A DNA stretch of 21,426 nt from a virus (lineage: Duplodnaviria; Heunggongvirae; Uroviricota; Caudoviricetes): positions 1 to 21,426 of the IMG/VR virus record IMGVR_UViG_3300013121_000012, one strand, 5' to 3'. Within the stretch, counting starts at the first letter, position 1. Every line of letters starts with the position of its first letter. The notes below the pieces were generated by a model, which was not told where the DNA came from, ran no database searches, and was given only the letters and a program-made list of their open reading frames with translations. The position numbers were made by a program, and so were the translations under genes. Below, piece by piece: positions 2 to 16,104 of the stretch.

Positions 2-541
2 GAGATCGTCATTACGAACTCACACGACGGTCGCAACGCCTTCCGTGCTCACATGGGAATCTTCCGCATGGTTTGCGCAAACGGTCTGATCGCTGCTGAT
101 CCACGTACTGAAGAATCTCTCCGTGTAACTCACAAGGGATATTCTAAAGACATGATCACAAAGATGATCGCCGACCTCGTTGCGCACTTCACAGACAAGG
201 TAAACGAAATCAAAACATTCAAAACTCTAATCATGAAGCCCGAACAAATGGTCAACTTCGCCGAAGAAGCGATTGGTATCCGTTGGCGTTATGAGTACGA
301 TCGTCCACAAGGCCTCACGCCGGAACTCGTACTTCAAACTCGCCGTTCTGAAGATCATGCTAAGGACCTTTGGACAGTCTACAACGTCATCGAGGAAAAC
401 CTCATGAAGGGTGGAATTCAAGCGGTCAATGAGAATGGCCGAGTTATCTCAACTCGCCCAATGAAAAACGTCCGCGAGCAAGTTCGCATTGAGAAATCCC
501 TTTGGGAACTCATGAGCAAACAAGCTGAAGTGTTGGCTTAA
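2..541 (+). CDS. DUF932/DUF945-family protein, 5'-truncated by the window edge
   Basis: The frame is open from base 2 (EIVITNSHDGRNAFRAHMGIFRMVCANGL). NSHDG...G.FR.VC.NGL and the later DLWTVYNVIEENLMKGG are hallmark motifs of the family. The ATG at 53 is internal. Confidence 0.85.
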   Translation, partial: EIVITNSHDGRNAFRAHMGIFRMVCANGLIAADPRTEESLRVTHKGYSKDMITKMIADLVAHFTDKVNEIKTFKTLIMKPEQMVNFAEEAIGIRWRYEYDRPQGLTPELVLQTRRSEDHAKDLWTVYNVIEENLMKGGIQAVNENGRVISTRPMKNVREQVRIEKSLWELMSKQAEVLA

Positions 542-555
542 TTCGTTAAGCGTTT

Positions 556-925
556 CTTGGAACATAAAACCAAGTGGTGCCTCAGTTATCTGGGCAATAA
601 ACCAATGGAGGTCCCGCGCGCGGGATCGATGAAGTTGGCTGTTTCTAGATCAGAAAAGCTAGATGGCATTTGCTCGTTATGACAAACGAGAGTCGACAAG
701 TGGTCTTTGCAAATCTGCTCCACTATAATCTTAGTATTTGCACGCCTCGAGCAGCGAGATTGTTGAGTTGTCCGCAAGACACACATTTGTACGAGTAGTT
801 GAAACGTAATTTTTAAGACGGATGGAAACATCCGTCGAACGTAATTTTTCTTACCTCCTTTCATAAGTAAAGAAAAGTTTAACACCCCACGCCCCCGGAG
901 TTTTTCGGTTCTCCTAAAAAAACCG
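556..925 (+). ncRNA. Putative large structured non-coding RNA or structured leader, family unassigned
   Basis: 412-nt gap between genes, packed with stems (556-560/570-574, 610-616/621-627, 634-640/691-697, 644-648/659-663, 673-678/685-690, 699-703/720-724, 817-824/829-836 with a GAAA loop, 846-854/867-876) and two possible pseudoknots. G-U pairs and the GNRA loop favour the + strand. Confidence 0.5.
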
Positions 926-953
926 TTCATACTACTATTTACAAGGAAGTAAA

Positions 954-3623
954 ATGGAATTAGCCAAAACAGGTGAAAATCAAGTCGTCGCTTCAGAAGA
1001 CTTTGAAAAGATGGAATTTGGTATTTCACAAGAAAATATCGGTCTCATTCTCGAAACACTCCGGTCAAAAATGTACTCGAATCCTATCGCTGCGATTTGC
1101 CGCGAGATTGCAAGTAACTGCCGTGACTCACATCGTGAAGCCGGAAAGCCTAACGAACCAATCGAAATCCGTATCTCTGATGGTGATGTCTTTATGGGCG
1201 TTGCCGAAGATGTCCATGCCACAATCAACTTCATTGACTATGGTATTGGAATTTCTCCAGAACGGATCAAGAATATTTACTTGCTCTTCGGTGCAAGTAC
1301 GAAACGTTCAGACAATTCTCAAACAGGTGGATTCGGATACGGTGCAAAAACACCATTCGCTTATTCCGACTCATTCGCCGTAATCACAAACTACAACGGA
1401 AAAAAGTACACATACTTCTTCTCAATCGGTGAAAGCCGGCGAGGTGATGCGTATCTCATCTCTGAAATGGATACTACTGATCCAAATGGAACTACAGTCT
1501 CCATTCCTCTCAAGGATGAGGACCGTCAAAAGTTCGAGTACGAACTGATTCGCGCAACGTATTTCTGGGATGTTCTCCCTAATTTCACGGGGCGATTCAG
1601 CATGGAATTCAAAAGCCAAATTGACAACCGAGACAGTACAATCCTCTTCAAGAAAGAAAAATTCTTGATGGCAACAAATTCTTCTCCTCGTGCATTCCGT
1701 ACGTTTGCTTTCATCATTGATGGAATCTACTACGACTACACGAACACGAAGGAATTGGAACCATTCCGTCAACTTGTAGAATCAACGGCGCAAAACAAAA
1801 AAGTGTTTCTTGTTTTTAAGACCGGAGAAGTAACGATTTCAACAAACCGTGAATCTCTTTACTACGACAAGAAAACAATTGCTTTGATTCTGCGTAACTC
1901 TAAAGAGTACGCTTCTACAATCAAAAAGGAATACATCAAGTGCATCAAAGAGTACAAAGGAGTTTACTATAACTTTGCTTGCGCAGTATCCGATTATCGC
2001 AGAAGTGGATCCAGTACAAGCGCCAATGACCTTAAAACTAAGGATTTGCATAAATGCCTTCAAGGATTTGACCGCAAATTCGTAGAATCTTGCCGAAGAA
2101 AGTATTTCGATTTCTACTCTGGCAAAAAATACTCTGGTAGCAATACAGAACATAGTTTTCTCTCGGACATCGATAAATACATGCAGATTTATCGTTTCGG
2201 AAAGTTTGTCGCTGGTCAAAAGCGTGACCGAAGAGTCGCTGATAATCTTTCTTCCGTTATTGGTCGTTTCATGTCGGGTGAGTATCCATTGTATTCTCAC
2301 CAAAACTTTTTGGAACGAGATTCAATCAAGAAGAATCTGACTATCTTTAAGCAGTGGCCGAATGCCCGATATTATGCTATCATTCTGACTCCTAAATTGG
2401 ACAGAGGATTTTATGCTCCGGAGCTTCGTCGTCTTAAAGATGAAGTGGAAAAAATCAATAAGAAAATCAGTCTTCTTGATCCTAAGAGTAGAGATTTTGA
2501 TATTGAGAAACGAAGAATAATTGGCGAATTACATTACTATAAAGCGCAATTAAGAGAAGCGATACACAAAAGAAAAGTGCTCGCTCGTTTCTGGAGTGAA
2601 TTCCCAAAGATTTGCTCGAAGCCGATTCCAACTTACGACTCAATTCCTGAGACGAAGATTTCTAGGAAACCAAATTCGCTCACTAAAGACAGTTACAGAG
2701 CTGTTACGCAGACTGTGCGAGTGGATTATTCCGGTAAAAATCTTACTCGTGAACTGAAAATAAGTAATGATGCAGCATATTCTGAAGTAAAAGCGTCGGA
2801 ACTTCAGGATGCGATCATTGTTCAGACAGCGAGCAATAACGTATATCAGATCCAAACGGAAATCAGAAATTCGATGCCGTATGTTTCATATGTCTCTAAG
2901 CTTGCATTCTTGTTCTCGGAAATGTTTTTCAATCGGTCGAATAACAAGTATTATGTATCGATTGTTTATGCTAAGTCGACCGACTACGCTTTGATAAAGT
3001 CCAATGTCGCTCGGCGTGTATACAAACTCGAAGACTTTATTGCTGAAGCCAAGAAATGCTTCACTGAAGAAAAGATGAGACACATCATGAACCAATATCA
3101 TATGTTGTCTCATCTCAATAACACGAAACCTGGAGACTACCCTGATCTTCTCAAATTTGTGAAAACAGAAAGAAAGATCATTTGGCCAAAAGTGCTTCGT
3201 CAGTTGCGGTTTGAAGAAAGAACAGAAAAGATTCGCACAAAAGTTCTCGGTGGTTATGGAAATGATTTCAGACAGATAATTGTTTTCGATCCACAATACA
3301 TCAACAGCACAAGTCAAAGGGAAGTTTGTGGATATTTCACATATACGAAACTCGACAAATTGTTTGCGAGCAATGCGGGATTTAACGATCTCTTTAAGAG
3401 TTTCAAAGACATGCATGATAAACTTGCTATACGGAAAGTAAAGCAGCGAAAGAATCTCAAGGAAGTTTTTAGGAAACACTATGGTGTCTTCGTAACAGAC
3501 CTTATTGAGAATTACTATCGCCCTGCGAATTCGTACAATAAGGTAGAACATGCACGAGTCGGTATCTGTAAAATGATCCGAGAAATTGACAAAAAATATG
3601 AAGCGTTTTACAATAAAAAGTAA
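954..3623 (+). CDS. rIIA: rIIA-like protein (N-terminal GHKL/HATPase domain), 889 aa
   Basis: MYSNPIAAICREIASNCRDSH, DYGIGIS and STKRSDNSQTGGFGYGAKTPFAYSDSF are typical rIIA motifs. SD-like AAGGAAG at 943-949; followed directly by rIIB. Confidence 0.92.
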   Translation: MELAKTGENQVVASEDFEKMEFGISQENIGLILETLRSKMYSNPIAAICREIASNCRDSHREAGKPNEPIEIRISDGDVFMGVAEDVHATINFIDYGIGISPERIKNIYLLFGASTKRSDNSQTGGFGYGAKTPFAYSDSFAVITNYNGKKYTYFFSIGESRRGDAYLISEMDTTDPNGTTVSIPLKDEDRQKFEYELIRATYFWDVLPNFTGRFSMEFKSQIDNRDSTILFKKEKFLMATNSSPRAFRTFAFIIDGIYYDYTNTKELEPFRQLVESTAQNKKVFLVFKTGEVTISTNRESLYYDKKTIALILRNSKEYASTIKKEYIKCIKEYKGVYYNFACAVSDYRRSGSSTSANDLKTKDLHKCLQGFDRKFVESCRRKYFDFYSGKKYSGSNTEHSFLSDIDKYMQIYRFGKFVAGQKRDRRVADNLSSVIGRFMSGEYPLYSHQNFLERDSIKKNLTIFKQWPNARYYAIILTPKLDRGFYAPELRRLKDEVEKINKKISLLDPKSRDFDIEKRRIIGELHYYKAQLREAIHKRKVLARFWSEFPKICSKPIPTYDSIPETKISRKPNSLTKDSYRAVTQTVRVDYSGKNLTRELKISNDAAYSEVKASELQDAIIVQTASNNVYQIQTEIRNSMPYVSYVSKLAFLFSEMFFNRSNNKYYVSIVYAKSTDYALIKSNVARRVYKLEDFIAEAKKCFTEEKMRHIMNQYHMLSHLNNTKPGDYPDLLKFVKTERKIIWPKVLRQLRFEERTEKIRTKVLGGYGNDFRQIIVFDPQYINSTSQREVCGYFTYTKLDKLFASNAGFNDLFKSFKDMHDKLAIRKVKQRKNLKEVFRKHYGVFVTDLIENYYRPANSYNKVEHARVGICKMIREIDKKYEAFYNKK

Positions 3624-3641: not shown

Positions 3642-4586
3642 ATGACAGAAAAACCAAAGTTTATCATCTCGACGACACAGATTGTCATTACTCGCAAGAA
3701 TCAAGCTCCAGTCTTTATCCAAAAGACTGACAGCCGTTTTGCGAAAGTGGTAGAGTGTCTGAAGAAAGAAGACTGGGAAAACCTCGATGTGATTCTCACT
3801 GGATCACTCAAGAACAAGATCCTTCAGTACGCTGATGGAAAAATTCGTGTAGACGAAAACGGTGACGTATTCATCGGTGAAGATAAGGAAGCAATTCCGG
3901 CGGTCATCGGTAAGAAAATCGTTGAATTCTACAAAGAAGGATTCCCAATCGATCCAATCGTAAGATTCTGGGTCAACTTACGGAAGAATCCGTCACACCG
4001 ATCTCAAACACAACTTTTCGGTTTCCTCGAAGCGAACCATATTCCTATCAAGGAAGATGGTACATTCTCTGCTTACAAGAAAGTCACTGTCGTTGATGGA
4101 GTCCTCATGGACTCATACTCACGCACAATTGACAACTCTGTCGGCAAGACTATCAAGATGAACCGTGCCGAAGTTGACGACGATCCAAACCGCACATGCT
4201 CGAAAGGGCTCCATGTTGCTGGCTGGGATTATGCACAAGGTTTCAGCGGGGACGTTCTCGTTGAAGTCGAAGTCAATCCGGAAAATGTTGTTGCTGTGCC
4301 AACTGACTACAACAACCAAAAGATGCGCGTCTGTGAATACACAGTCGTGAACGTCTGCCACGAGAAGATCGATGAGATTCTCCGTAACTCTAAAGCTGAA
4401 GCCGACAACCGCAAGGCAGTCGAAGCAGCAAAAGAAGTTGCAACAAAGAAAGCAGAAGAAAAAGTCAAGTCCTTTGCCGAAATGTCTCCGGAAGAAATTC
4501 TGGCATTCATCAAAGAAACAACTGGCCGCGACATCGAAGCGGAAGCACTGCAAGCGGAACTCCGCAAGAAGAACGTTCGCGTCTAG
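3642..4586 (+). CDS. rIIB: rIIB-like protein, 314 aa
   Basis: LFGFLE...PIKEDGTFSAYKKV, VDDDPNRTCSKGLHV and VEVNPENVVAVPTDYNNQKMRVCEYTVV match rIIB. AGGAGA SD; adjacent to rIIA. Confidence 0.92.
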   Translation: MTEKPKFIISTTQIVITRKNQAPVFIQKTDSRFAKVVECLKKEDWENLDVILTGSLKNKILQYADGKIRVDENGDVFIGEDKEAIPAVIGKKIVEFYKEGFPIDPIVRFWVNLRKNPSHRSQTQLFGFLEANHIPIKEDGTFSAYKKVTVVDGVLMDSYSRTIDNSVGKTIKMNRAEVDDDPNRTCSKGLHVAGWDYAQGFSGDVLVEVEVNPENVVAVPTDYNNQKMRVCEYTVVNVCHEKIDEILRNSKAEADNRKAVEAAKEVATKKAEEKVKSFAEMSPEEILAFIKETTGRDIEAEALQAELRKKNVRV

Positions 4587-5821: not shown

Positions 5822-5850
5822 TTTACAAGTTTTCACTTGAGTGTTATAAT
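5822..5850 (+). promoter_or_regulatory. sigma70-like (early) promoter with extended -10
   Basis: TTTACA (5822-5827), 17-nt spacer, TGn plus TATAAT (5845-5850); lies just after a terminator and upstream of the ATPase gene. Confidence 0.85.
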
Positions 5851-5923
5851 AAAGCACTTCCCGAAAAGCAGACGACAGTGTGAGAGCTGAGTCCGCTAAT
5901 CAAGAGTTCGGGTTTGGGGGATT

Positions 5924-16050: not shown

Positions 16051-16074
16051 TCAATAGGAATCGAGTGATTCAAT

Positions 16075-16104
16075 AAAGAGGAGCTTCGGCTCCTCTTTTT
16101 TTTT
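16075..16104 (+). terminator. Rho-independent terminator after the major capsid gene
   Basis: AAAGAGGAGC-ttcg-GCTCCTCTTT plus a long T run (cUUCGg tetraloop). Confidence 0.95.

Follow-up and report, generated by a model that had tools for sequence, protein, structure and literature searches.

Time and again, large structured RNAs encoded by phages have been recognised as ribozymes, guides or RNA assemblies of new kinds. Pseudoknots of the H type, with a 5-bp first stem, a longer second stem and an A-rich linker, are familiar from type III antitoxin repeats, the preQ1-I riboswitches and the leader of T4 gene 32. GOLLD and ROOL form RNA cages, and chain-to-chain pairing has been described for the loops of OLE and GOLLD, according to the preprint of Kretsch et al. 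(bioRxiv 10.1101/2024.12.08.627333).

The locus described here lies in the window, that is, the whole analysed stretch of 21,426 nucleotides, at positions 1-21426 in a viral contig of 206,805 bases. Between the DUF932 gene and rIIA, positions 553-836 probably encode a genuine phage RNA, conserved and probably pseudoknotted, that belongs to none of the catalogued families, as judged from two full sequences. This RNA is small enough for direct transcription and probing, two natural variants already test its fold, and there is a candidate natural deletion allele. Moreover, the RNA kit of the phage that carries it is unusually complete (tmRNA, Ro60, ligases), and several more of its early RNAs await explanation.

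The phage, the gap upstream of rIIA and its homologs

The T4-like capsid, protease and portal genes assign the contig to an uncultured 207-kb T4-like phage, the capsid matches in cultured phages being about 30% identical at best and none of them close. After the phage's own kin, the nearest relatives of its FecR-domain gene are proteins of Turneriella and other Spirochaetota (33-39%), a likeness that serves only as a hint to the host. The RNA kit comprises tmRNA, 25 tRNA calls (the first tRNA of the genome at 54.6 kb), Ro60/TROVE, RNA ligases, Thg1 and a poly(A)/CCA-type polymerase; the tmRNA (L015:16268-16672; genome 56767-57169) has an unusually long tag of 28 residues. Additionally, the DNA polymerase III alpha gene (L022:1-4847; genome 176837-181846) seems to be split around inverted genes, including one for a GIY-YIG endonuclease, with ends that look intein-like by eye and a second part carrying a group I intron that is also found in the relative.

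The gap extends over 542-953, from the DUF932 stop at 541 to the rIIA start at 954, and is, as had been stated in the preliminary description, the largest gene-free gap of the window; genome-wide, it is one of 22 gaps longer than 200 nt on a rough ORF map. The 5' (N-terminal) part of the DUF932 gene is found at the other end of the contig. A minus-strand ORF at 586-1029 was rejected as a gene, having no Pfam match and a frame that stops in the homologous locus. DUF932 was likewise set aside as an RNA partner: the protein model (pLDDT 87) has no PDB match by sequence, nor by fold in a search of narrow scope, and the atlas names only DUF932.

Examination of the rIIA-upstream region in relatives yielded one full homolog with kept base pairs. 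This locus, L004, was found by a DUF932 search of IMG/VR that returned it alone; its gene order is the same, and the homolog occupies the same slot between DUF932 and rIIA. The rIIA proteins are 60% identical (714 aligned codons; for DUF932, see Table 1), and fourfold-degenerate sites are identical at 27/64 and 61/155 positions (about 40%). The 39-nt core of the element is the joint fourth longest of the 128 exact matches of at least 18 nt between the 40-kb relative and this genome, and two of the three longer ones lie inside a group I intron. The third codon position is no less conserved than the first two, and the homologs have no long frame in common, so that the constraint on the element does not act at the protein level. 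At least four further close relatives exist as proteins.

Among the matches listed, none was a third full copy, whether from IMG/VR, from GTDB genomes or from cultured phages and plasmids. Four pattern scans of IMG/VR returned zero, zero, one (the contig of L004) and six matches, five of the last being due to chance; in each of two further scans, the L004 contig was the sole fit among the 119 stretches listed out of approximately 140 (85 of them distinct in the second of these scans). Two loci obtained with a loose pattern, L172 and L224, were rejected as group I intron-like by eye, with only a short motif in common with the element. GTDB genomes gave no match, and a second scan gave 0/24 candidates; JGI metagenomes searched with rIIA peptides gave two distant loci, with rIIA directly following a gene in L002 and L001 (the contig of L003), and blastn in phages and plasmids gave short matches only (E ≥ 0.3). 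Model R1, which is weak for distant copies because it was built on a MAFFT alignment misplacing the pseudoknot, detected no second copy in this genome, none in three other viral records (0/3) and one 12-bit chance match in four phage records; its 22-bit match at 33299-33403 lies inside a Rad50-like gene and was set aside. A 15-mer of the core is absent from seven of the supplementary files of PMC10690425, and no literature report on this RNA was found.

A shorter allele was met in run X1, in one contig of a close relative (287 nt, depth 3.8, matched at 80% likeness). It matches 541-595 with two differences and 943-1087 with one, and carries 87 other letters in place of 596-942; both flanks are kept (96-99% alike), and the contig shows no alignment with the L004 interior. 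The core therefore looks optional in this one contig, which we take as a lead. A contig from run X3 diverges from the window upstream of 943, 30 of its letters resembling the 3' end of the L004 gap; runs X2, X4, X6 and X7 do not cover the gap.

Extent and predicted fold of the element

The conserved structured RNA occupies about 553-836, roughly 280 bases (Table 1). An RNA of about 370 nt at 556..925 had been proposed, and this observation is confirmed in part: the element is conserved in L004, and its conserved part ends near 836, not 925. The perfect 8-bp hairpin with a GAAA loop, also described earlier, is present.

Table 1 Features of the gap between the DUF932 gene and rIIA and of the flanking genes (window positions)
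Feature	Position	Strand	Remarks
DUF932 gene, 3' part	2..541	+	Pfam PF06067, E 7e-23; 79% amino acid identity to the L004 gene
5' module: P1 5' strand, alternative local hairpin 556-560/570-574, hairpin 579-595	546..595	+	37/40 (546-585) and 9/10 identical to L004; also in the X1 contig
P1, predicted long-range closing helix 555-562/811-818	555..818	+	8/8 pairs kept, two one-sided changes; energy near that of the local alternative
Variable arm, longer in the window, with hairpin 610-627 (probability 0.99)	596..643	+	No counterpart in L004
Hairpin P3b	644..663	+	Same place in L004, sequence replaced; 4/5 pairs changed on both sides; matched by position, not sequence
Invariant 39-nt core: hairpin P4 673-678/685-690, unpaired palindromic hexamer 692-697	664..702	+	39/39 identical to L004
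Predicted H-type pseudoknot: S1 699-703/720-724, S2 708-714/736-742, A-rich linker 725-730	699..742	+	
P8 746-767, P9 769-781, P5 3' strand 788-790, P10 791-807	746..807	+	
3' hairpin P11, GAAA loop, likely 3' boundary	817..836	+	8/8 pairs; longer hairpin in the same place of L004
Spacer	837..942	+	No conservation in L004; 12 nt of it duplicate 803-814; z -0.4 for 837-953
rIIA ribosome-binding site	943-950	+	
rIIA gene	954-3623	+	PHROG RIIA, E 2e-52
rIIB gene	3642-4586	+	Follows rIIA; PHROG RIIB, E 2e-59

Base pairs were counted in a hand alignment by coordinates, between the window and L004 only. Among all 52 pairs, 33 are the same, 4 have changed on one side and 14 on both, and 1 is broken. 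Changes occur in six anchored helices, where 10/11 changed pairs are still paired against 3.9 expected; this test was post hoc, and apart from the pseudoknot the helices had been selected in sight of the two sequences, so that its p of ~1e-4 is optimistic. The clean test is provided by the pseudoknot, which had been predicted from the window alone as a pairing of 708-714, in the loop of AGTGG/CCACT, with 736-742. Both stems were confirmed and are kept with changed pairs in L004, one pair of S1 and two of S2 having changed on both sides and none being broken. The chance of keeping 3/3 changed pairs is ~0.09, and about 5% of L004 shuffles contain a second stem of 5 bp, whatever its register, which places the clean test in L004 at p about 0.05-0.09; in the window, a 7-bp Watson-Crick S2 is found in 0.2-0.3% of shuffles.

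The other helices differ in what they tell. P4 and P5 (696-698/788-790) are invariant and therefore uninformative for base changes; P8 has one one-sided change and one broken pair, P9 two both-sided changes and a one-sided one, and P10 one both-sided change. In P11, which was matched by position, its sequence being replaced in L004, 4/8 pairs have changed on both sides. P1, P4 and P8-P10 were found independently by RNAalifold on the MAFFT alignment. Competing invariant helices exist as well, for example 571-576/667-672 versus 667-672/697-702, between which two sequences cannot rank. The multibranch closing helix proposed earlier, 634-640/691-697, did not hold up: it has seven pairs on paper, two of them G-U, forcing it costs 3.9 kcal/mol, and the stretch containing its 5' strand is absent from L004.

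The region had been called highly structured, and in energetic terms this applies only modestly, with z -2.07 on the plus strand (1/100 shuffles) and -1.89 on the minus strand (4/100). The conserved parts alone give z -1.0 (553-820) and +0.5 (640-820), and L004 gives -3.06. Folding energy alone is weak support for a structured RNA. Such core values near -1 to +0.5 and the about equal folding of both strands, together with a sample of two sequences and a TATAAT at 724-729, would also suit a DNA-level site (origin, recombination or protein-binding) or a decaying remnant whose pairings arose by chance. We consider this distinctly improbable in view of the compensatory changes in the pseudoknot and the replacement of whole hairpins, as well as the G-U pairs and GNRA-type loops, which favour one strand as RNA; moreover, the spacing upstream of the TATAAT misfits the phage promoter motif, and the core has no repeat elsewhere in the genome. 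That the RNA is real and folded is, in our judgment, highly probable.

Transcription signals and the rIIA start

An early-type promoter-like motif, consisting of CCATTTACA, about 15 nt and TATAAT, is present in 9-10 copies in the genome, none of them in the gap and one upstream of DUF932, at the far contig end. We infer one early operon, composed of a leader RNA, a small ORF, DUF932, the RNA 553-836, rIIA and rIIB. In agreement with the preliminary description, no U-tailed terminator separates the RNA from the flanking genes on the plus strand, the two sites found being both on the minus strand inside DUF932. Ordinary terminators are used elsewhere, as seen from a GC-rich hairpin with a 9-U tail at window 16064-16104, after the major capsid gene.

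Further hairpin-rich leaders were noted in the same genome. A second conserved leader RNA lies between the early promoter and DUF932 (L023:9615-9750, genome 206110-206250; L004:2060-2205), with 114/138 aligned bases identical, three hairpins and no Rfam match; its pairing with the RNA 553-836 was considered and rejected, the best duplex of 7 bp being reached in 91/100 shuffles. More long leaders of this kind lie behind early-type promoters at L273 (genome 49640-49880) and window 5850-5923, and those at 5850, 73555 and 103210 start with a similar CACTTCC motif. Two other gaps, L271 (genome 79840-80180) and L272 (103190-103480), have a 15-nt motif in common and belong to no Rfam family; the L271 copy gives 30-35-nt matches in many unrelated phages (27 records with E ≤ 10, best 6e-7), one of them in a tRNA cluster.

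Shortly before a start codon, GCAATACTA occurs at six places, all on the plus strand (genome 49851, 53885, 64325, 78909, 103436 and 206231); four of the six stand right behind a hairpin, and the six are among 25 matches to a looser pattern. This motif is likely a processing, promoter or translation signal. The window contains no motif of the GCAATACTA type, and a variant of it follows the 3' hairpin in L004 and in the loose end of the X3 contig. Because this variant follows the hairpin there and the motif recurs before other genes, the leader signal of rIIA appears to be a general one, separate from the core.

A link of the RNA to rIIA/rIIB expression had also been suggested. In such a case the RNA would be a cis-acting leader, either similar to a riboswitch or bound by a protein, by which rIIA/rIIB translation is set; as an alternative to P1, its 5' strand could then mask the ribosome-binding site of rIIA. 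The element does stand directly before rIIA in both genomes, its invariant core is aptamer-sized, 544-558 is predicted to pair with 943-956 in the rIIA start region of the window with a probability of ~0.6, and P1 and its local alternative are nearly equal in energy. At the same time, the ribosome-binding site pairing is not predicted in L004, which is predicted to cover the site with a different segment, so that no switch over the rIIA start is shared. The spacing between the RNA and rIIA differs by about 70 nt between the homologs (P1 to start site, ~125 versus 52 nt), no terminator is found on the plus strand, no riboswitch family matches, and the X1 contig keeps both flanks without the core. 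The suggested link was accordingly not upheld, and a cis-acting leader seems quite unlikely.

Known RNA classes and possible roles of the element

Core motifs of the known classes were searched for as exact motifs in the window and L004. Of nine Rfam 15 matches (E ≤ 5), 0 lay in 541-953, where a single match of E 8.4 is on the minus strand, and six Rfam matches on L004 had a best E of 3.4; a match to a known family, which would remove the novelty, was thus not found in the region. Rfam, ARAGORN and motif searches were negative, in line with the earlier statement that no hallmark of tRNA, tmRNA, RNase P, group I/II introns or a recognisable riboswitch is seen. Both homologs lack the core motifs that mark P4 and the G-binding helix P7 in group I introns, and the Rfam group I model scores the phage's real intron at 55 bits and the RNA region not at all. 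The CR-I and CR-V motifs of the RNase P P4 pseudoknot are absent, Rfam being negative as well; for tmRNA, there is no ARAGORN call, no T-loop motif and no tag-like frame common to the homologs. Core motifs of group II introns, hammerhead, HDV-like and twister ribozymes are absent from both homologs, again with negative Rfam searches.

As in a riboswitch, a conserved structured domain lies 5' of a gene; a shared expression platform (terminator or start-site switch) was not found. Size, tRNA-island context and model match do not correspond to GOLLD or ROOL. The genome contains a Ro60 gene, as bacterial Y RNAs would imply (TROVE E 4e-18, 71808-73463, 71 kb away), and the Ro-binding motif occurs once in the window (834), is absent in L004 and is accompanied by no tRNA-like call. 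A TnpB/IscB or reverse transcriptase partner of the OMEGA, retron or RT-linked kind had no Pfam match in the window (15 ORFs) or beyond it (224 ORFs, excluding six that crossed locus borders). Judged by Rfam and the motif searches, the RNA belongs neither to the group I/II introns nor to RNase P, tmRNA, the known small ribozymes or Y RNA. Separately, the Ro60/TROVE gene itself (L016:11809-14045; genome 71808-74045) is followed by an early-type promoter, a tRNA-like RNA (27.5 bits) that lacks a normal anticodon loop, and additional hairpins over about 350 nt, which makes it a candidate phage Y RNA locus; YrlB, the sole Y RNA model tried, had no match genome-wide.

The core is as strongly conserved as the phage's group I intron, which raises the question of a catalytic RNA, either a new self-cleaving ribozyme that divides the message of DUF932 and rIIA or a mobile ribozyme of an intron-like kind, neutral in its intergenic position. 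The pseudoknot with invariant joining segments and variable peripheral arms would fit, as would presence in two relatives and absence in one and the occurrence of a group I intron and several GIY-YIG genes in the phage. We nevertheless hold it fairly unlikely, given that Rfam yields neither a ribozyme nor an intron down to E 5-10, that both homologs lack the core motifs listed above, that no gene is interrupted, and that no endonuclease, reverse transcriptase or TnpB/IscB gene adjoins.

A stand-alone RNA fits best, because of the paired ends, the capping hairpin, the variable arms, the invariant core with its predicted pseudoknot, the lack of a shared platform and the apparently core-less allele; in both homologs P1 joins the ends, a strong hairpin comes next, and the variable arms are peripheral. 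The undescribed phage noncoding RNA proposed at the outset is accordingly supported by conservation and by compensatory changes, including those of the pseudoknot, with one relative, and its control link to rIIA/rIIB is not. The reading that we favour, at somewhat under an even chance, is a processed early noncoding RNA that acts in trans as a host-protein decoy or scaffold. It would be co-transcribed within the early operon from the early-type promoter upstream of DUF932, fold with P1 as its closing helix and P11 as its cap, be released from the operon transcript by nuclease trimming at its ends, and bind protein via its invariant unpaired segments and pseudoknot. The likeliest guess for the partner would be a defence or translation factor, because of the early position and the phage's RNA kit. 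An RNA-centred strategy of this phage is supported by its tmRNA, tRNAs, Ro60, ligases, Thg1, polymerase and other structured leaders. More speculatively, and with considerable doubt, the element might represent a new class of catalytic or ligand-sensing RNA with a pseudoknot core unlike those described, an optional early-operon module of large phages probably infecting Leptospirales, which cuts its own transcript or gates the rIIA/rIIB anti-abortion genes.

The processed RNA thus favoured can be set beside several known systems. Group I introns (RF00028) have a similar size, an invariant core with variable arms and an optional presence, whereas the element lacks their P7/P4 core motifs and interrupts no gene. 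Its 5-bp S1, longer S2 and A-rich linker are as in type III antitoxin repeats, preQ1-I and the T4 gene 32 leader; unlike these, it is a single copy inside a larger end-paired domain, with no sequence or Rfam match to them. The candidate viral structured RNAs of PMC10690425 are likewise intergenic phage RNAs with covariation support. GOLLD (RF02032) and ROOL (RF03087) are also phage-encoded, multi-helix and pseudoknotted, with no known protein partner, but many GOLLD RNAs exceed 800 nt, against about 280 nt here, and the element does not lie at a tRNA island and has no Rfam match. The unpaired palindrome 692-697 could permit chain-to-chain pairing, as in the OLE and GOLLD loops treated in bioRxiv 10.1101/2024.12.08.627333.
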